Assembly (NCBI GenBank): GCA_900314865.1
Contig: OMWW01000006.1
Coordinates: 21,828 to 85,827, forward strand
DNA length: 64,000 bases
Direction of reading: 5' to 3'
From: an uncultured Erysipelotrichaceae bacterium
GTDB lineage: Bacteria; Bacillota_I; Bacilli_A; RFN20; CAG-826
Shown piece by piece: positions 1,978 through 36,147 of this stretch. The position numbers and the translations under genes were made by a program. The notes beneath the pieces are model-generated. The model searched no databases. It was not told the DNA's origin and was given only the letters and a program-made list of their open reading frames with translations. The stretch's first letter is position 1; each line of letters starts with the position of its first letter.

Positions 1978-2364
1978 AAAACTGACAACATTATCTTTTA
2001 TGGTCAAAGACCATTGGAAGATACGCCTGCGTTATATAAGATTGCAGACGCTATGCTTGTTACATTGGAAGATAAACCATACGCGAATATGACTATACCA
2101 GGAAAGGTTCAATCATATATGGCGGTTGGTAAACCTATTATTGGTGCGATTAATGGTAGCTGCGCTAATTTTATAAAGAATAATGATGTTGGATTTGCTT
2201 GTTCATCTGGTGACAGCAAGGGTCTAGCAAACCTCATTAAGAGTTTAGAATTAAGAGAGTTGAAATTGATTGGCAAACATTCTAAAGATGTTTACTTTAA
2301 GAAATATAGTAAGTCTATTTTTATGAGTAGATTGATTTCAACATTGGAGTCAATGAAGAAATAA
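1978..2364 (+). pseudogene. Truncated glycosyltransferase family 4 (C-terminal domain only)
   Basis: KTDNIIFYGQRPLED..ADAMLVTL..TIPGKVQSYMAVGKPIIG is a GT-B C-terminal signature. In-frame TAA at 1975-1977 lies just upstream and the N-terminal domain is absent. Confidence 0.8.
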
Positions 2365-2648
2365 AACCTACATTTCTTTAATAACCGAATATCTATAATT
2401 CGCCATTTGCCCATTCTTCCTAGTTTAAAGAGATTCGACAAATCTTTTTTCTTTTTGAACAATAGAAGGAAACAACTTTCTAAATTCATCTTTTGATGTT
2501 TCTTTCTTACACTTGGCTATAATTAGCTCGTAGTTAGGCAAAACAATCATCTTGTAGTGGTGAACATCCATTAAATATGTAGTCAAATACCTAATATTAA
2601 ATATTTAATGCACAGTATATTTGTTATATAATAAATAAACATTTCATT

Positions 2649-3440
2649 ATGAAAACATATAAAGTATTTATTAACATCGCTTTGATTTCTGCACTTGTGT
2701 TTTTGAGTGTTTCCATTATTTTATGGGTTATGCTTGTTATTTATTCTTTTATAAATACAGGTTTTATTGTTGACACTAATAACTTTGATATTGTTTATCG
2801 CATCGCCCTTATTTCTACAACTATTACTTTTGGTCTTTTTACAATTCAGTTTACTTTAAGATCATTACAAAACGCTTTATCAGATAAGCGAAGCAAAGAA
2901 TTGATTAGGACAAATGATTTACTTAACGATTATATGGAACTTGCTTCTTCTCCAAGATTCCTATTCGTTAAATCTGTTTGTCGTGAATTAAGTGATATTT
3001 TTAATTTTGGTACATCATTTGATAATTTTGAAAACACTCAAAAAGATTTTGTTAATATACTTCTCAGTTTATTAGCAAACTCATCTAAGAGTTTTAGCGC
3101 TGAGCTTATCAATGCTTCCAAAGCCTATATTTATAGATCTACGATTGATAACGACAGTCCTGAATGGTTTAAGTCCACGTACACTAACGACAAAATGTAT
3201 GAATACTTTATGTCTTCTTATGTTGCAATTGAAAATAAATTCGAAGTATTTTCATATCAATATATCAATAAATCTGTCGATGATAATTTGTTTGAAGAAC
3301 AATTATTAAACGATATACGTTTCTTTTATCTATTCCACCTCTTGTTTGTGGGGCTTGGTATGATCACAAATGATTGTAAATCGATTTCTTATCAAGCCAT
3401 AAGGATATTTAAAGAAAAAAATGATAAAATAAAAAAGTAG
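2649..3440 (+). CDS. Two-TM membrane protein with DUF4760-like C-terminal helical domain
   Basis: 263 aa. Two N-terminal hydrophobic helices; C-terminal NKFEVFSYQYINKSVDDNLF resembles the N.LE.F....N...DE pattern of DUF4760. Confidence 0.55.
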   Translation: MKTYKVFINIALISALVFLSVSIILWVMLVIYSFINTGFIVDTNNFDIVYRIALISTTITFGLFTIQFTLRSLQNALSDKRSKELIRTNDLLNDYMELASSPRFLFVKSVCRELSDIFNFGTSFDNFENTQKDFVNILLSLLANSSKSFSAELINASKAYIYRSTIDNDSPEWFKSTYTNDKMYEYFMSSYVAIENKFEVFSYQYINKSVDDNLFEEQLLNDIRFFYLFHLLFVGLGMITNDCKSISYQAIRIFKEKNDKIKK

Positions 3441-3452
3441 GAGGTATTTATT

Positions 3453-3656
3453 ATGAGCACATCATCAAGTTATAAGAATTTGGAAAAAGTAATTTCTAAT
3501 TTGAAAAAGAATAACTACAAAGCAGAGACTAATGCTTTTTACAATGAGGAGCTACGTGTAAATGCTTCTGGAAACGTTTATATTGTTGAAAATAACAATG
3601 GTGAGGAAAAGGTATCTTCTGATCAAATTCTTAAATTAATAAACGCTAGAAGATAA
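3453..3656 (+). CDS. Small hypothetical protein (67 aa)
   Basis: Strong SD (AGGAGG) overlapping the stop of the preceding gene, followed by ATG; likely co-transcribed. Confidence 0.7.
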   Translation: MSTSSSYKNLEKVISNLKKNNYKAETNAFYNEELRVNASGNVYIVENNNGEEKVSSDQILKLINARR

Positions 3657-3669
3657 TGTTTTTAAAAAC

Positions 3670-3756
3670 GGAGGATTACCCAAGAGGCTGAAGGGGACCG
3701 GTTGATAGCGGTTAGGTTCAGAAATGGGCGCAAGGGTTCGAATCCCTTATCCTCCT
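3670..3756 (+). tRNA. tRNA-Ser-like gene with aberrant anticodon arm (GAT in canonical register); no encoded CCA
   Basis: Acceptor GGAGGAT/ATCCTCC 7/7. D arm CCC..GG..GGG. Long variable arm GTTCA-GAAA-TGGGC. T arm AAGGG-TTCGAAT-CCCTT 5/5. Anticodon arm ACCG-GTTGATAG-CGGT is 16 nt instead of 17. Confidence 0.85.
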
Positions 3757-4015
3757 TTTTATTTTCTGATATTTTAATAATTTCTTATTTAGTGCGCTGT
3801 AACAAGTCAAGACTTCATAAAACCTCATTATTGTTTATGCTTTGTTACAAAACTGGCCTAGCCTTCTAATCTATGTCATTTTGCATTTGCTTTTCCTACA
3901 ATCGACTTGCAAATGTGTATCATTTAACATAGCAGGTTTAATAGTCGATAAAAATGTGATAAAAATATAAATAGTATATATATTAAAGGCTCTTTTGAGA
4001 TGGAGGAATATATTA

Positions 4016-4444
4016 ATGGAAAAAGAAAAAGCATTAGAAATTTGGGATATTCTGTTTGGCAAAGACACTCTTTGGGTTCAAGATTGTTTTGGAACATGGA
4101 TGTATCGTGAAGATTATGGCGATACAGAGAAGAAAAGGGTCCGACCCGGAAATACTAAAGAGTATAAATATGGCTGGGAAATAGACCACATCAGACCAAA
4201 AAGTGATTTTGGGGAGAACGCTGACTCAGATTTATTAAATAATTATGAGATTATGCAATGGAGTAATAACAGAACCAAAGGTAATGATTACCCACAGTTT
4301 GAGATTAATGATGTGAAATATAAAGTTGTGAAGTGTGATATTTGTGGAAATAAAGGCTTAAAAGGATACGGAATAGTTAATTCAGAAGGAAAAAGAATTG
4401 ATTGGAAAGGCAGAAATAATAAGTATTTTACTAGAAATAAGTAA
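4016..4444 (+). CDS. HNH endonuclease family protein
   Basis: GWEIDHIRPKS...NNYEIMQWSNNRTKGND is an HNH pattern; C-terminal CxxC; GGAGG SD before ATG 4016. Confidence 0.8.
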   Translation: MEKEKALEIWDILFGKDTLWVQDCFGTWMYREDYGDTEKKRVRPGNTKEYKYGWEIDHIRPKSDFGENADSDLLNNYEIMQWSNNRTKGNDYPQFEINDVKYKVVKCDICGNKGLKGYGIVNSEGKRIDWKGRNNKYFTRNK

Positions 4445-4566
4445 TCACGAAGTTGTTGTAAAAACAATCTGATTAATCATTTTAACAATTATCTTTATTA
4501 ATAATTGATGATTTGAGAAAACGCATAGTATTTTGGCATATATTTTAGTAATTAGAGAAAAATCCA

Positions 4567-6348
4567 ATGAACATACAAGACATAAAAGAAATTATAAAAG
4601 AAGTTATCAAAAACAAAACTTATTGCAAATCGGTTTTGATAGATGGACCGTGGGGTTGTGGAAAGACCACTGCGGTTAAAGATGCAATTAAAGACTTAAC
4701 AGAAGAGGTTGTTTCTAAGAAGAAATTGGTTTATCAGTCTCTATTTGGAATTAAAGATGTTTCTGAATTAGTGGCGTGTTTTTCTTATGCAGGCAAAATC
4801 ATATATTCAGTAACAAAATCGATTGCCAGTCCATTTACTAAACTAATTCCAATTGTTGGAGAACAAATCAAAGAAGGTATAGATAATTCAACGGCTTTGT
4901 TTTCGCCACGTCCTTCAAAAAAGAAGGATACTATCTTCATATTTGATGATTTAGAAAGAGCAGATGAGTCCCTTTCTTATATAGCGTTACTTGGGTTTTT
5001 TAATCAATTGATTATGAGAGGTTGCAGAATAATTTGTATTTCTTCCCTTGACGACTTATCAAGATTAGATTCTGAAAGAAAAATAGGCTTGGATGCTTTT
5101 TTAGAAAAGGCGTTTGACAGAATCTTATATATTAATGAAGATCCTGAAGATATTATTATTAAACTTTTTGAAGATAACGAAAAAACAAAAAACTGCATAC
5201 GACAATGTGTTGATATGTTTGAAAGCAACATTCGCTTAGCTATGAAGGCCCACAGGTTACTATCTGATGTCTATGAAAATTCAAAAGAATTTAAATATGA
5301 CCTAAGTAAAAAATATAACGACTTACAAATTTTGAAATCAACCATATGTTCAATTAAAGCTATTTATTTCTTTGAAAGAGAGAAAAAAGAAAAGAATGAC
5401 AATAGTAAAATAACAAATGTATATGAGGATTTGCTATCAATCCATCAATCAAAGCAGCTAGCTTCTAGAGTTTCTAAGAATATCAATAATGTAATTAAAC
5501 AAGATGAATTGTATTACGTTCCAGAAGAAATTGCCGACATTAAAATACTTGCTAGATGTTTGTGTATGGCCGAAGTTCACAAAGATTATAGTGAACTTAT
5601 TAAAAACTTTTCCTCTAATAATGAAAAAGAAAAAATAAATATCTTAGATACTTCTGTATTCTATTTGGATGACGAAGGAAAGAGAAGCGCTTTTTTAAAG
5701 TTTAAGAAGGATACATTGGAAGGGACCGCAACCATTAATAGGCAATATATTGATAGATTTGCCGAGTTCTTAAAATATACTGATTTCGACTTGAAAGATG
5801 ATGGACTTATTGATTGTGTTATTTCAACAGTTGTTGATAAATACTTAAATGGAGACACAAGTGCATATGATAGACTCCAAGATTATACCAACTTCCCTAA
5901 CGAAACTAACAATCCTAAAATCATGGATGAGGTATTTGAAGAGGTTTCACAAAAGCTGCACAAAACAGAAACAGAATCTATAGAGTTAAAAATGAAAGAT
6001 GCATTTGAAAAAGAAGATTATACTTTTTTATTAGATTTGTTGCATGATGTTGAACATTATAAAAAGCCAGAACATATTAGAAAAGAAATAAAACGCATTC
6101 TCATTAACAATAATTTTTATTTTCCAGATTTAAGCAAAAATATTGATTATGAATCATGGTCATATTGCCATCAAGTTGCAAAAATTTCAAAAGGTGATAA
6201 CGATATGTCACACAAGTTTATTAATTTACTAAAAGAGGAAGTATCAAAACATAAAGATAGTAAATCCGCTATCGATAGAGCCAAAGCGCTTGTGCAATAT
6301 AATTTTGATGCCGAAACGTTTAAAGAGTTTGTGGCTTATTGTGATTAA
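4567..6348 (+). CDS. KAP-family P-loop NTPase
   Basis: Walker A LIDGPWGCGKTT, YQSLFG, Walker B FIFDDLER and FLEKAFD, followed by a long helical C-terminus. Confidence 0.85.
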   Translation: MNIQDIKEIIKEVIKNKTYCKSVLIDGPWGCGKTTAVKDAIKDLTEEVVSKKKLVYQSLFGIKDVSELVACFSYAGKIIYSVTKSIASPFTKLIPIVGEQIKEGIDNSTALFSPRPSKKKDTIFIFDDLERADESLSYIALLGFFNQLIMRGCRIICISSLDDLSRLDSERKIGLDAFLEKAFDRILYINEDPEDIIIKLFEDNEKTKNCIRQCVDMFESNIRLAMKAHRLLSDVYENSKEFKYDLSKKYNDLQILKSTICSIKAIYFFEREKKEKNDNSKITNVYEDLLSIHQSKQLASRVSKNINNVIKQDELYYVPEEIADIKILARCLCMAEVHKDYSELIKNFSSNNEKEKINILDTSVFYLDDEGKRSAFLKFKKDTLEGTATINRQYIDRFAEFLKYTDFDLKDDGLIDCVISTVVDKYLNGDTSAYDRLQDYTNFPNETNNPKIMDEVFEEVSQKLHKTETESIELKMKDAFEKEDYTFLLDLLHDVEHYKKPEHIRKEIKRILINNNFYFPDLSKNIDYESWSYCHQVAKISKGDNDMSHKFINLLKEEVSKHKDSKSAIDRAKALVQYNFDAETFKEFVAYCD

Positions 6349-6735
6349 TTGCGATTATTCGTATTTTTTGCCACGTTACCCCGGAACTTTGTTCCCTGGT
6401 AACCGCTTTAACATTGATAACTACCTTATCGCATAATTCTTTTAAGATATAAAGACAGATGTTATATTCGTATGGGGGTTTCTTATCAAAGATAATCTTA
6501 TCTTTATTGTGCATAGCGATACCTGTTCCTTATGTAATATAAGTCCATCAAAAAAGCGAATAATTCAAGTTATAATTCTGTAAATAGCTGTCTATGTAAT
6601 AGACATTAGAAAGTTTATAAATTATTATATTAGAAGAAAAAATACCGAATTATATAGTGCCAATTAGTATTATTACACATGTGTTAATTATGGTTTTTGG
6701 AATAGTGTGTTGGCAAAACACAAGGAGGACTTTGC

Positions 6736-7452
6736 ATGGCTTCGATTAAGAAAGTATTTGAAAATATTAAAGACGATTTGACTAATTCTGTGCAAGAACG
6801 AAAAAACATTAAAATCCTTGAAGCCAAAGGTATAATTGTCACTGATTTTAGAATTTGTAATGGTTCAAAGCAAGATTTGTATGTATCAGGAAATATCGAC
6901 ACAAGCGAAAAGAAAATATTCTTTGCTTCAAGACGAACTATTGAAATTGGGACAATTTTGGTTGATAAACTTCTTAATCTTTATCAAATAAAAGCATCAA
7001 CGTATGATAAAAATAGACTGTTTGATGAAGATGTAGTGACAACGATTTGCGACTATGATTTGTATGTGCCAAATAATCCGGCGAGAAATGTGATTAATCA
7101 GAGTGCAAATATTTTTCAGGGTTTTTCTGATAATTCCTTTAATAATATAGGCACCCTCGTACTAAATGTTGAGCAAAAAGCAACAATTGAACAATCTATA
7201 AGTATTGCTCAAATGGTTGAAACTGTAGAGGACGAAGCTAAGTATAGGTATAATCCAGTCAAGAATATATTTTCGTTTTTAGAATTGATAAATAAAATTC
7301 TTAAAGGAATTGAAACGATTGATAAATTAGAAGATAAATTGGTGCAAGGTATATTGAAGGAAACCTCATCGTTTTTAAAGGACATGATTTTAATGTTAAT
7401 AAAAAATATAAAAAATAAAGCCGATGAGAGCGGTCATTTCAATGATAAATGA
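6736..7452 (+). CDS. Hypothetical protein (238 aa)
   Basis: AGGAGG SD before ATG; ends in TGA overlapping the next gene; no recognisable motif. Confidence 0.7.
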   Translation: MASIKKVFENIKDDLTNSVQERKNIKILEAKGIIVTDFRICNGSKQDLYVSGNIDTSEKKIFFASRRTIEIGTILVDKLLNLYQIKASTYDKNRLFDEDVVTTICDYDLYVPNNPARNVINQSANIFQGFSDNSFNNIGTLVLNVEQKATIEQSISIAQMVETVEDEAKYRYNPVKNIFSFLELINKILKGIETIDKLEDKLVQGILKETSSFLKDMILMLIKNIKNKADESGHFNDK

Positions 7453-8812
7453 TTTCAGTGACTACATGAATGGAACACTTACTTTTCTAAATTCTAACTG
7501 TTATTTTTCTTTTGATGGTAAAACACTAGAGATTTATTGTGTTAATGGCGAAGCTAGAATAATTTTATGGGAGAAACTAGCTGATGGTTCTTGCGTTTCT
7601 GCCAAGAAAGAAATACCAAGCAATAGACTTGAGGGCCATTCTTTTGATTTAAATGCAGATGTTGTTTTTTATATTGATTCCAAAGGATATGGCTATCATG
7701 GTAGCATAGACACTGAAAAAGTTATCCTTAAAATCAATGTCTTAAAGTACATAACAATTAAGAGTAAGATTTGCGATAAGAACATTCTTGTTTTTAGCTC
7801 TAAACAGTTTCATAAATTTTTATATTTATTTCCGCAATATAATCTCACTTTAAGGCACGAAGACAAAATTGCTGACATCACATACAAATCGGCCGTTTCA
7901 TCAGACAAAGCTGAATTTACGTTTAAGGGTAAGAAATTTGTGGCCTATCCCTGCCCAACAATTAACACCCAAGGGAATAAGTTTGATTTTATTCCTGAAA
8001 TTCATATAGTGTGCGATGAATCGTTGGAGGAAACAGAAATGCTTTCGCTAGTTGAAATTCTATACAAAATCATTTCTTTTTTGTTTATGAGAGTCAACAT
8101 TATTCCAGACAGTATTTATTGTTGTTCCAACAATCTTCAACATAATATTTTTTATCGTAAAGCAACTGACTATATCGAAGAAAAAGAAGATGTGAATTCT
8201 ATTATAAAATATGGATTTATTAGATGGAACACAGTTTACAAGAACTTCCAAAAGATTATTGATGATTTTATCGATGGAAACGCAGATACAAAACACCTTG
8301 GCAATTCATCAGAATCAAGAAAATGGATTGACTTTAAAAAAGTATCCACCATATCATCTTTTTTTGAATCTACTTATGCTCTTATTTATGGAAACAAACC
8401 AAACCATAGAACATCTACTCAAAAGAATATAGATACAATTATTGAAACCTTATTGCCTCTAAAAGATAAAGGGAACAGAAAAATGGGTGACACTATAGAT
8501 TATTTAATTAAGCAGTTAGATCATGTGTCGTTAGAAACGAAGATACAAAAAGTGCTGAATGAATACGACGGTTATTTACGCGCTATCAAAAAAGAATTCG
8601 GGCTTGAGAATAATAGTGTAACCGAAATTGCTGGTATCTGTGCGCAAACAAGAAATTGGACCGATCACGGTGATAAAAGGGCGGCAATTAATCCATTTAT
8701 TGCATCGTGTTTTGCCTATTTGACTTGTGCGACTTATGCTATGTATTTAAAAAGATGGGGAATAGATGATAAGTTTATTGCCAATGCGCTTTTAGAACTG
8801 TATATGGTATAA
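7442..8812 (+). CDS. ApeA-like HEPN domain protein
   Basis: Beta-rich N-terminus and helical C-terminus with the HEPN RxxxxH motif (RNWTDH). Start at 7424 or 7442. Confidence 0.7.
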   Translation: MINDFSDYMNGTLTFLNSNCYFSFDGKTLEIYCVNGEARIILWEKLADGSCVSAKKEIPSNRLEGHSFDLNADVVFYIDSKGYGYHGSIDTEKVILKINVLKYITIKSKICDKNILVFSSKQFHKFLYLFPQYNLTLRHEDKIADITYKSAVSSDKAEFTFKGKKFVAYPCPTINTQGNKFDFIPEIHIVCDESLEETEMLSLVEILYKIISFLFMRVNIIPDSIYCCSNNLQHNIFYRKATDYIEEKEDVNSIIKYGFIRWNTVYKNFQKIIDDFIDGNADTKHLGNSSESRKWIDFKKVSTISSFFESTYALIYGNKPNHRTSTQKNIDTIIETLLPLKDKGNRKMGDTIDYLIKQLDHVSLETKIQKVLNEYDGYLRAIKKEFGLENNSVTEIAGICAQTRNWTDHGDKRAAINPFIASCFAYLTCATYAMYLKRWGIDDKFIANALLELYMV

Positions 8813-8912
8813 ATGTTTATAGATAAATTGCATAGTATAAAGAAAACAAAGATCAATATCTTTCACGAAATTCGTAATTTTAATTGCGGGTCAGTTCTAA
8901 ACAACTAAAACA

Positions 8913-9152
8913 ATGATAAATAAAGACAACAGATTCTTTAGAGAATTGCTTGAGATATTGAGCGAACAAACAAAGATTGAATGTTTAAAGAATTTGGAAG
9001 TTTTAAAAGAACTTGCTGAAGGACATAAAGACTCATATATTACCGCTCATCTTTTAGCAGAATACAATCGTATAGCCTTTGTTGGGCTGATCACATTATT
9101 AAATAAGGAAGCAATCGAGAATAACATTCGAAATATGCTGATGGGATTATAA
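8913..9152 (+). CDS. Small helical hypothetical protein (79 aa)
   Basis: ORF with natural composition filling the gap between larger genes; no motif and no clear SD. Confidence 0.45.
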   Translation: MINKDNRFFRELLEILSEQTKIECLKNLEVLKELAEGHKDSYITAHLLAEYNRIAFVGLITLLNKEAIENNIRNMLMGL

Positions 9153-9259
9153 AACTTGAGATAAGTGGCCGTTATGGCATAAAAATATCAAAATATTGTA
9201 AATTATTGTGCGATAAATTGCATTTAACTAGAAAAAAAGATAATATAGAATCAGAAAAT

Positions 9260-10504
9260 ATGAAAAAGAAGCTTTACAAAAGAGAAAATTATTTATCTAG
9301 AATCAGACCTTTTTACCATGAAAATGATTTAATTAAAGTTATTACTGGTGTTCGTAGATCCGGAAAATCTTCCATCATGCAAATGATAAGTGAAGAATTA
9401 ATTGATGGTGGCATTAATCCTAATAACATTATTTATATTGATTTAGATAAAAGAGGATATACAAAGATTAAAACTCCGGACGTTCTTGAAGAATTGATTG
9501 ATAAACTATCCAAAGGAATAAAAGGCACTAAGTATTTATTTATTGATGAGATTCAAAATGTTAAAGATTTTGAGAGAATGATAAATGCGTTTAGAGTTGA
9601 AGAAGATTATTCAATTTTCATAACTGGCAGTAATTCCTATCTTCTCAGCGGAGAATTGATGACGCATCTTACTGGTCGATATCTAGAATTCGAGGTATTT
9701 CCTCTTAATTTCCATGAGTATCTTGATATGAAGAAATTTTACAAGATGACAATTGATGGAAATCTTTCTATTGAACTAGATCGCTATATTCTTGAAGGTG
9801 GTTTTCCAAGAACTTTGTTCTTACCTGATAGTGCTGCCAAAAAAGTTTATATTAGCGAAATAGTGAATGAAATCTTTAAAAAAGATATTAAAAAACGAGT
9901 AAAGATTAAAAATGTTGAAGTCTTTAATTTGGTTAGGGACTACATTGTTAATAATTATGGTGCAACAACTAGTATTAACAATATTGTTAAGGATTTAAAT
10001 AAAAATGGCATTGCTATTCAGTTCCGTACAGTTGCAAAATATATCCAACATTTAGTGGATGCCAAAATTATCTATGAATGTAGCAGATTCGATATGAAGT
10101 CTAGAAAGATTTTCCAGAATGAAAAGAAATATTATTTAGCCGATTTATCGTTTGCTCAATTTACAAATCCAAATAGCAAGATTAATTATGGTCCAGCATT
10201 GGAGAATGTAACGTATCTCTACGCCAAATCTAAAAACTACGATGTTTCAGTTGGTAGAATTGGCACATTAGAATGTGACTTCATCTTGAAAGATTTGTTT
10301 CTAAATTATTCTTATGTTCAAGTTGCTTATACAATTCTTAGCAGTGAAGATACAGAAAATAGAGAATATGCTCCTTTGGAGAAGATTCAAGATAATTTCC
10401 CAAAATTTGTGCTAACAACAGATTTCTTAATTCAAAAAAGAAAAGGAATCATACATGATAATCTGATGTTGTTTATGAAAAACGATAAGATTTTTACTAG
10501 ATAA
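9260..10504 (+). CDS. AAA+ ATPase, AAA_14/DUF4143 (COG1373) type
   Basis: GVRRSGKS, LFIDEIQ, ITGSNS, LTGR, GGFP, KKYYLAD, LEN and ECDFI..YVQV motifs. Confidence 0.9.
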   Translation: MKKKLYKRENYLSRIRPFYHENDLIKVITGVRRSGKSSIMQMISEELIDGGINPNNIIYIDLDKRGYTKIKTPDVLEELIDKLSKGIKGTKYLFIDEIQNVKDFERMINAFRVEEDYSIFITGSNSYLLSGELMTHLTGRYLEFEVFPLNFHEYLDMKKFYKMTIDGNLSIELDRYILEGGFPRTLFLPDSAAKKVYISEIVNEIFKKDIKKRVKIKNVEVFNLVRDYIVNNYGATTSINNIVKDLNKNGIAIQFRTVAKYIQHLVDAKIIYECSRFDMKSRKIFQNEKKYYLADLSFAQFTNPNSKINYGPALENVTYLYAKSKNYDVSVGRIGTLECDFILKDLFLNYSYVQVAYTILSSEDTENREYAPLEKIQDNFPKFVLTTDFLIQKRKGIIHDNLMLFMKNDKIFTR

Positions 10505-12497: not shown

Positions 12498-12548
12498 CCT
12501 TTATAAATAATCCAGATATATAACAATAAGAATAATGGCCTTTTTTGG

Positions 12549-12800
12549 TTGGGATTATTATAGTCTGCTAACAATCTTCTTAACTCCCAATTCAGTTTTT
12601 ATCTACTTTTTCAACATTTGGATTGATATAGTCGAATCAGCTTTACACTAAAATCGGCTTTTGTACTACTATCAGTGTATCTCACAATTAATACACTATA
12701 TTATTCAATAATATAGTATATAGGATTAACACACCAATAATTGGGATTATTATAGTCGGAATAATTTGTACCAAATAAAAATTAGGGATTATTACAGTAC
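12549..12800 (+). repeat. Four copies of a 17-bp direct repeat (TTGGGATTATTATAGTC) plus a 23-bp palindrome
   Basis: Exact copies at 12549 and 12741, degenerate copies at 12617 and 12783. Palindrome ACTATATTATT-C-AATAATATAGT at 12695-12717. Confidence 0.75.
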
Positions 12801-12947
12801 GTTAAAGACAAATAACAGTTTTTTATATCTTATTTTTGTCTTATTTTTTTAACACCATATAATTTTTGCATTAAATTTGATGATTTCTTTTATTTCTTGT
12901 ATTCCTATGTTGTTATATACGATATAATTTTGAAAGGTAAGTTTTGT

Positions 12948-35999: not shown

Positions 36000-36014
36000 T
36001 AATTATTAGAATAT

Positions 36015-36126
36015 AGATACTTCAGGGCAGCGAATTAACGCGACCGGCGGTACACCCCGCGAGCAGAAATGCAGGAACTTGTGAAATTCAAGTGGCGACA
36101 GTAAAGTCTGGATGGAAGAAGTATTA
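36015..36126 (+). ncRNA. FMN riboswitch (RFN element)
   Basis: CTTCAGGGCAG..GACCGGCGGT..CCGCGA..GTGAAATTC..CGACAGTAAAGTCTGGATGGAAGAAG; P1 ATACTTC/GAAGTAT; upstream of ribU. Confidence 0.93.
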
Positions 36127-36147
36127 TAAGATTTATTTCTTATATTG

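Follow-up and report, generated by a model that had tools for sequence, protein, structure and literature searches.

An irregular tRNA-Ser(GGA)-like gene with a foreign anticodon arm at the end of a rare two-gene unit in an uncultured Erysipelotrichaceae bacterium

Transfer RNAs (tRNAs) have become a main battlefield between phages and bacteria: anticodon arms are cleaved by nucleases, and altered tRNAs are the response of the phages. To our knowledge, arm-altered tRNAs are so far known from phages, and in these the anticodon is kept. Irregular arms are also a feature of the known frameshift suppressors, which carry a loop of 8 nucleotides (nt) on a stem of 5 base pairs (bp) in an arm of 18 nt. 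Here we describe a stretch of 64,000 nt (the window), positions 21828-85827 of contig C6 (OMWW01000006.1), from an uncultured Erysipelotrichaceae bacterium whose genome assembly comprises 1.37 Mb in 12 contigs, with a guanine-cytosine (GC) content of ~0.35 and a completeness of 94%. Near its start, and preceded by two open reading frames (ORFs), lies an 87-nt tRNA-like gene, labelled X (3670-3756, + strand), which we file as a variant among the irregular tRNA genes on mobile DNA. Our preferred reading, held tentatively and at somewhat under an even chance, is that X descends from a mobile-element tRNA with an anticodon arm remodelled under selection, is itself disabled or non-decoding, and is at most the structured 3' end of a two-gene transcript.

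The phage tRNA-Thr that rescue cells from the P2 OLD nuclease depart from the host tRNA chiefly in the anticodon arm, where the CNG motif is changed and the stem is shorter (PMC12445682), and anticodon-loop variants of phage tRNAs have been predicted to block host nucleases (PMC10264068). Like these nuclease-escaping tRNAs (T5-type tRNA-Thr), X has a near-host body with arm-focused differences, as expected of such a mobile-element tRNA, together with a shortened stem and an OLD-family gene nearby. However, those phage tRNAs retain the host anticodon, a 7-nt loop and their function, whereas X has an 8-nt loop, lacks G73 and CCA, and does not keep the same anticodon, since GGA is absent from its loop and UGA occurs in the 3' register only. 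X is also chromosomal, with no phage genes recognised beside it, and the loss of GGA together with the retention of a paired C28-N-G30/C40-N-G42 motif argues against a simple fit to the nuclease-escape pattern.

Two further groups of serine-like or loop-expanded tRNAs invite comparison. Allo-tRNAs are defined by a 12-bp acceptor/T branch (8/4 or 9/3), and many of those with the isoleucine-codon anticodon UAU are thought not to be used in translation; some allo-tRNAs lie near toxin-antitoxin or transposon genes (PMC5389517, PMC7609411). In common with allo-tRNAs, X possesses a serine-type long variable arm and a non-serine reading is possible, but it is a near-copy of the ordinary tRNA-Ser(GGA) of its family, and the allo-tRNA identity considered in the preliminary description of this stretch fails on its 7/5 branch. 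As in 8-nt-loop tRNAs, a possible four-base anticodon in the loop of X is preceded by a U and followed by a purine; unlike frameshift suppressors, yeast mitochondrial tRNA-Thr and engineered four-base decoders, X has a 4-bp stem and a 16-nt arm. The layout of a frameshift suppressor or four-base decoder was accordingly rejected for X, whose 8-nt loop sits on a stem of 4 bp and not 5. There is also a likeness to tRNAs that border integrated elements: in this family mobile DNA docks at tRNA-Ser(GGA), X lies amid imported cassettes, and a KAP-type nucleoside triphosphatase (NTPase) encoded 0.8 kb downstream is 27% identical to element cargo. In contrast to the tRNA pieces left at element edges, X is altered in the middle and not at one end.

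X closes a compact unit, in which lengths of proteins are given in amino acids (aa) and coordinates are those of the window:

2649-3440, + strand: ORF of 263 aa (ORF list), with two predicted N-terminal membrane helices and a helical domain, from a rare family.
3453-3656, + strand: ORF of 67 aa (ORF list), the conserved partner of the 263-aa gene, with GGAGG upstream.
3670-3756, + strand: X, which combines a body of the tRNA-Ser(GGA) type with a foreign anticodon arm and has neither G73 nor CCA (ARAGORN, Rfam, alignment).
3697-3712, + strand: the anticodon arm of X, 16 nt, stem ACCG/CGGT with the 8-nt loop GTTGATAG (sequence, pair probabilities).
3756-3765, + strand: T-run TTTTTATTTT directly 3' of the acceptor stem, in place of G73-CCA; a possible transcript end (sequence).

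The anatomy first described, two ORFs, a gap of 13 nt (3657-3669) and an 87-nt tRNA-like gene, is borne out in its coordinates by the ORF list, ARAGORN and Rfam. The sequence itself is real. All or part of the stretch occurs in 12 public runs from 7 studies of cattle, sheep and goat gut, among which no RNA dataset is listed. A 1383-nt contig from a different sample (X4) is identical over 3404-4600, and a 567-nt contig from sheep gut in another study (X7) covers 3159-3725 with 11 substitutions and no gaps, so that the length of the arm is the same there; with contigs from separate samples in agreement, an assembly slip is very unlikely.

Every arm of the X cloverleaf other than the anticodon arm pairs in an ordinary manner: the acceptor arm over 7 bp, the D arm over 3 bp, the T arm over 5 bp and the variable arm over 5 bp, the last including two G-U pairs and closed by a GAAA loop. 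The anticodon arm, composed of ACCG (3697-3700), the loop (3701-3708) and CGGT (3709-3712), is 16 nt long in place of the usual 17 and reads as RNA ACCG, GUUGAUAG, CGGU, with stem pairs 27-43, 28-42, 29-41 and 30-40 predicted at probabilities of 0.995-1.0. Its loop can be read as U32-U33-GAU-A37-G38 in a 5' register, as G32-U33-UGA-U37-A38 in a 3' register and as UGAU in a 2+4+2 register, and the readings proposed at the outset (U33-GAU-A37, an alternative UGA and a quadruplet UGAU) hold by sequence. ARAGORN returned 'tRNA-???' with the anticodon '(ga)', or 'tRNA-?(Ser|Ile)' in its other output format, and could not assign X. The Rfam tRNA model matches X at 39.9 bits, against a gathering cut-off of 29, with an E-value of 5.6e-07 (601 nt searched). 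A gathering-mode scan of the whole window omitted X, the fast filters having dropped it despite this score.

Bacterial serine identity is listed as resting on C72, G2-C71, R4-Y69, C11-G24, a large variable region and G30-C40 (PMC9976931). X retains G1-C72, G2-C71, G4-C69, C11-G24, the large variable arm and, in the 4-bp register, G30-C40, and the sole listed bacterial determinant that it lacks is G73, the discriminator position being occupied by the T at 3756. The native discriminator is G in 11/11 aligned tRNA-Ser(GGA) genes of the family and in all four tRNA-Ser genes of the same genome. Measured against a functional bacterial tRNA-Ser, X therefore has the cloverleaf, the Rfam score and the determinants bar G73, and is without G73, a 5-bp stem with a 7-nt loop and a serine anticodon, and an encoded CCA.

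The remainder of the genome carries 45 tRNA genes, 44 called by ARAGORN and one more, with the anticodon CAT, by Rfam. Its four tRNA-Ser genes (UGA, GGA, CGA and GCU) all lie on contig C4, which makes X redundant and shows that a full separate tRNA-Ser set is present, including the normal tRNA-Ser(GCU) for which the preliminary description proposed a check. The CAT gene, at C4:76763-76834 just upstream of tRNA-Ser(UGA), was missed by ARAGORN and scores 45.7 bits with Rfam. CCA is encoded by 45/45 of the other tRNA genes and not by X, which has the lowest Rfam score among the 46 tRNA matches (39.9 versus 51.6-60.4 bits for the native serine genes). No RNase Z was found in the assembled 94% of the genome, the best model match being 34.4 bits against a cut-off of 292.95, so the usual maturation route for CCA-less precursors was not found.

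When a 1142-nt query was compared with 200 other genomes of the family, the tRNA part alone was matched, at no more than 82% identity. The 14 best family matches to X are all tRNA-Ser(GGA) genes at 79-82% identity, against 75% for the GGA copy of its own genome; X is thus nearer to other genera than to the genome that carries it. The flanks of X are unrelated to those of the family tRNA-Ser(GGA) genes. Of the 11 native tRNA-Ser(GGA) genes of the family, five share nucleotides 1-27 with X without a difference; the variable arm agrees with that of one native gene (L010) save for a compensated change from C-G to A-U, the T arm is identical to those of two others (L014 and L017), and the 7-66 pair is compensated relative to native tRNA-Ser(GGA). 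The anticodon arm is wholly unlike the native arm, YGGGC-TTGGAAA-GCTCR, which is found in all 11 genes. At the columns invariant among these 11 natives, X is changed at 0/47 positions of the body, 7/15 of the arm and 3/3 of the G73-CC tail (Fisher test for arm versus body, p = 1.3e-5, a generous value since the natives are kin). The damage is concentrated in one arm, as the preliminary description had it, and this pattern puts random decay out of consideration: the arm and the 3' end were altered as blocks or under selection. No tRNA-Ser(GGA)-type 3' end without G73 was found in 400 other family genomes.

Within the family, tRNA-Ser(GGA) is a docking site for mobile DNA. Relatives of the KAP-type P-loop NTPase downstream of X were found in 18 of the 400 family genomes; 11 of these loci were read, of which the best two (27% identity) adjoin tRNA-Ser(GGA), the other nine having no tRNA in reach. 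The best two are copies of a single element from two genera (G253 and, on contig C69 at L050, G053) that share 91% identity over 8.7 kb, and are counted as one independent observation. In G253 the element occupies ~25.7 kb directly after tRNA-Ser(GGA) (C48:6545-32340) and is bounded by 22-nt direct repeats that start at the last two bases of the tRNA, its cargo comprising two large serine recombinases, a VapE-like protein, Schlafen AlbA_2, Wadjet JetABCD, a helicase-methylase and the KAP NTPase. Docking at tRNA-Ser(GGA) therefore offers a route by which a tRNA copy could travel with cargo. The 22-nt repeat of this element is absent from the window.

Relatives of X itself were sought in several ways. 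The X stem in serine-type flanks, with a loop of 6-9 nt, gave six matches in one genome for each of 185,579 species, none of them a tRNA, no match in metagenome contigs and a single one in viral contigs (L031). With the loop of X fixed and any stem, viral contigs gave no match; a GAU loop in serine flanks gave five, none a tRNA, and the variable arm of X gave none. Comparison by blastn with phage records matched 23 of them and revealed no close relative: among the 15 listed, those with 90-95% query coverage reach at most 78.7% identity and one with 83% coverage reaches 80.2%, and in 7 of the 23 records the best place is 80-95% identical to X, some over shorter stretches. In the genome, no second tRNA piece was found. 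The complement of the X loop occurs five times in the window, a number reached by 5/100 shuffles, and never near the unit. So far, X with this arm is known from one lineage only, which makes covariation unusable, and a full-text literature search, though no proof of absence, returned no published description of the layout.

The single viral match, at about chance level for the search pattern used, is a phage tRNA at L031:1980-2069 on a 256-kb IMG/VR contig. It has a serine-type long variable arm, the stem ACCGA/TCGGT, acceptor ends GGA.../...TCC, U73 plus CCA and the lysine anticodon UUU, and lies between ordinary tRNA-Lys(UUU) and tRNA-Lys(CUU) genes; here too, a type-II body on mobile DNA is combined with a non-serine anticodon.

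The two proteins encoded before X form a gene pair that is real but rare. Among 5.8 billion proteins the 263-aa protein has five homologues (52-95% identity), and among 1.84 billion representatives it has 18 matches at E <= 0.001; the 67-aa protein likewise has five homologues (78-100% identity). Two of the latter lie on contigs whose lengths (156865 and 28152) recur among the contigs that encode 263-aa homologues, indicating that the pair travels together. In the alignment of the 67-aa protein, 45/67 columns are invariant and the C-terminal two thirds are almost unchanging. Neither protein matches Pfam, NCBIfam or PADLOC. The AF2 model of the 263-aa protein is all-helical, with two N-terminal membrane helices (pLDDT 67.7), and found nothing in the PDB at E <= 0.001 with Foldseek; that of the 67-aa protein (pLDDT 55.9) is unusable for a structure search, and the Atlas gave no usable match for this protein.

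The label 'DUF4760-like', given to the 263-aa protein in the preliminary description, survives as a faint lead below the cut-off and not as a family assignment. The Pfam model of DUF4760 (PF15956) matches 0/6 members of the 263-aa family at E <= 10 and 1/16 distant relatives (E 0.0019, 18.8 bits against a cut-off of 25), and the Atlas offers leads only, at 0.87-0.88 for a cluster bearing DUF4760 and for membrane effectors of retron Ec48, as well as a structure named DUF4760 at TM 0.40/0.62. That the protein is a membrane effector of the abortive-infection kind is no more than a guess, if a fair one. Its ORF ends in TAG and the 67-aa ORF begins 12 nt on in the same frame (3438-3455), so that read-through of the TAG would fuse the two; a shared frame is a one-in-three chance, and the 263-aa homologues stop at the same place.

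That X works with the two proteins, as was initially envisaged, finds no support. The pair with X was not found in 22 genomes of the genus or 400 of the family. No loci encoding relatives of the 263-aa protein were found in genome, metagenome or viral contigs, and tblastn found no relatives of the pair in phage and plasmid records. Run X9 has three contigs that resemble the pair at about 96% identity. The match of one of them, 479 nt long, covers 3524-3668 and gives way to 334 nt with less than 80% likeness to the window, the break falling one base before the tRNA start. By eye, ~20/30 of the first loose letters agree with X when two gaps of one base are granted, among them the stretches U8-A9-C10-C11 and GAAGG; X9 may thus lack the tRNA or carry a tRNA-like piece that has diverged much further.

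The reading of X as a disabled mobile-element tRNA can be set out as a series of steps. X would be a xenologous extra copy of the family tRNA-Ser(GGA) that arrived on mobile DNA; such an origin is suggested because X is nearer to other genera, has unrelated flanks and lies in a low-GC mosaic region with defence-type genes. Its landing place would be a mosaic of defence-type cassettes inside a polysaccharide locus. The body is untouched and the whole anticodon arm has been swapped for a different hairpin, one that resembles the proper arm ACCGG-UUGAUAG-CCGGU minus one C. The arm keeps the grammar of a tRNA, with four Watson-Crick pairs, G30-C40, U33 and, in the 5' register, Y32-U33-NNN-R37, and one extra C would turn it into a flawless arm of 5 bp and 7 nt; this fits derivation from a functional arm better than a random block. 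The ancestor of X would accordingly have been a functional tRNA of a mobile element, with selection having reshaped its anticodon arm. The present X would stand outside the decoding set of the cell, and most likely decodes not at all or very poorly, given its 4-bp stem, its 8-nt loop, the lack of G73 and of an encoded CCA, the failure to find RNase Z and a cell without need of it. With G73-CCA replaced by the U-run, X may be transcribed as the tail of the two-gene messenger RNA, on which RNase P would cut 13 nt past the stop codon and the fold of X plus the U-run would set the 3' end. A simple scan found no promoter between the 67-aa ORF and X.

Several observations weigh against this account. 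An untouched body and a still-pairing arm also fit an RNA kept for a present purpose, and X is identical in another sample and of the same length in another study. Nor need its irregularities be disabling: yeast mitochondrial tRNA-Thr functions with an 8-nt anticodon loop (PMC3113583), G73 carries only moderate weight for serine identity in Escherichia coli (PMC9976931), and the genome holds a CCA-adding-type gene (PF01743, 117.6 bits), so that CCA could be added to X after exonuclease trimming. No phage or integrase gene adjoins X and it has no close viral relative; the mobile-element origin is thus something that we infer. With regard to a role at the 3' end, a simple scan of 2300-4100 called no terminator on the + strand, X with its U-run included. 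Finally, X is predicted to reach its minimum energy not as a cloverleaf but with the D loop paired to the variable arm (-32.9 versus -28.2 kcal/mol, z = -2.15), which weighs against any tRNA-like role; a cloverleaf or near-cloverleaf is the minimum-energy fold in 12/14 native tRNA-Ser sequences folded, or 11/13 distinct ones, own_gga and Ser_gga being one gene.

An alternative that we regard as unlikely, though not negligible, is that X is a maintained, engineered RNA, be it a nuclease decoy or inhibitor, a nuclease-proof spare, or an effector that decodes with GAU or UGAU while charged with serine and acts with both proteins. Were this so, an engineered tRNA would form part of a defence cassette on the chromosome. 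Two narrower forms of the idea can be distinguished, each with a small chance of being correct.

In the first, X would be an active, if odd, tRNA that is cut by RNase P, trimmed, supplied with CCA, charged with serine via its long variable arm and used by the ribosome, where it would read UCN (as UGA), AUY as serine (as GAU, a mistranslation) or the four-base codon AUCA (as UGAU). All bacterial serine determinants but G73 are present, U33 is available in every register and the loop fits 2+4+2; the tertiary-contact bases equal the native ones (0/47 changes), a CCA-adding-type gene is encoded, and all 20 tRNA classes have been found convertible to four-base decoders (PMC9094753). However, a 4-bp stem in a 16-nt arm is unlike the known frameshift suppressors (5 bp + 8 nt), the UGA register places a purine at 32 and U at 37, and the GAU reading would be toxic. 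X also lacks G73 and an encoded CCA where no RNase Z was found, and has the lowest tRNA score in the genome, and the one overlapping gene pair read by eye (7424-7452) has no in-frame AUC-A.

In the second, X would not be translated with at all, and would instead serve in an arms race over tRNA cleavage as a nuclease decoy or inhibitor, a nuclease-proof spare, or a partner or antitoxin of the two proteins. The change is confined to the arm that anticodon-arm nucleases recognise, and an OLD-family nuclease is encoded 5.4 kb upstream; P2 OLD cuts stems at a paired C28-N-G30/C40-N-G42 (PMC12445682), and the stem of X has exactly such a motif (CCG/CGG). The leads from the 263-aa protein to membrane effectors of defence systems, although weak, point the same way, and irregular tRNAs near toxin-antitoxin systems have been reported in the case of allo-tRNAs (PMC5389517). 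Against this, the OLD homologue belongs to another cassette, with housekeeping sugar genes between it and X, and the CNG motif is not special, being shared by the native tRNA-Ser(UGA) and (CGA). A resistant spare must keep the anticodon of the tRNA that it replaces, whereas GGA is lost from X. Moreover, no relatives of the pair plus X with context were found in genome, metagenome or viral contigs, and in the 96%-identical relative of run X9 the likeness to X ends at the 5' edge of the tRNA.

That X is a plain, randomly decaying pseudogene, or a chimeric scar of integration or excision in the anticodon loop, has a slim chance. X is redundant, has no CCA and lies in a mosaic region with a gene fragment (2014-2364), and tRNA-Ser(GGA) serves the family as a hot spot of integration; but the contrast of 0/47 with 7/15 rejects random decay, and a scar would break the likeness on one side only, while in X both strands of the stem are changed and yet pair. 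The 3' half of X matches its 5' half, the compensated 7-66 pair included, and there is no second tRNA piece, no repeat around the unit, no recombinase within 1-22504 and no copy of the 22-nt repeat of G253. An att-site chimera, which the preliminary description had named among the outcomes that would overturn its reading, is therefore unlikely, with both halves of the body matching each other and the family type. As a related candidate, an att-site tRNA relic was rejected, X being full length with no repeat partner and no recombinase nearby. Derivation of the X stem as a strand-swapped native tRNA-Ser(UGA) stem, and inversion of the loop, were considered by eye and rejected.

It is very unlikely that X is a normal tRNA gene distorted by an error of assembly or sequencing: the absent base would fall in a CC run, but the independent contig X4 is identical and X7, from another study, has no gap, and with the base restored the arm and anticodon would still be unlike any native tRNA-Ser and G73-CCA would still be absent.

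X could, then, be a fossil of the conflict over tRNAs, or a tRNA body newly employed as a decoy, inhibitor or corrupting decoder, and it offers a clean case for how far an anticodon arm can change before a tRNA fails. As it stems from a single lineage, its value is that of a testable lead rather than a result.

The genomic setting of X is a low-GC region (0.28-0.32 from position 1 to ~12,500, against about 0.35 for the genome) inside a polysaccharide locus, with glycosyltransferases upstream on the contig and from 14,995 on. The features recognised around the unit are as follows (positions in the window unless a contig is named):

C6:18362-20062, 3.5 kb before the window: OLD-family nuclease with AAA_15 and OLD Toprim domains, PADLOC Old, E 4e-37.
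878-1897: MBL-fold protein with weak LmuA and Avs1a matches.
2014-2364: C-terminal fragment of a group-1 glycosyltransferase.
3995-4444: weak HNH match.
4567-6348: P-loop NTPase with a PDC-S49 match over its N-terminal part, E 3e-17.
9206-10504: full-length PDC-S01, E 5e-131.

The defence-type setting that had been proposed for the unit is upheld by the PDC-S49-like, PDC-S01 and OLD-family nuclease genes near it. The last of these is a single-gene occurrence, 5.4 kb upstream of X, between the genes for UDP-glucose dehydrogenase and an epimerase. No recombinase was found within positions 1-22504 of the window, and repeats around the unit are limited to chance-level matches. At the glycosyltransferase fragment (2014-2364), a stretch of genome G193 that matches 1972-2509 continues through at 81%, a sign of past breakage there.

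The stretches between cassettes (2313-2574, 6370-6577, 8902-9233 and 12543-12811) recur at 78-86% in several genomes of the genus and elsewhere in the same genome (C2:381094-382027). They are unlike one another and, where they recur, enclose different genes, so that the arrangement looks like a shuffled cassette array. Within the last of them, in the spacer before a 704-aa gene, lie three copies of a 17-nt motif (12549-12565, 12741-12757 and 12773-12798; two identical and one diverged), possibly a binding site. A 462-aa ORF at 7424-8812, without a family match, has near its C-terminus an R-x4-H stretch (RNWTDH), noticed by eye; this is the motif type of HEPN RNases, for which no tool gives backing in this ORF. 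Further downstream, a flavin mononucleotide (FMN) riboswitch is found at 36014-36127, with a score of 86.2 bits.

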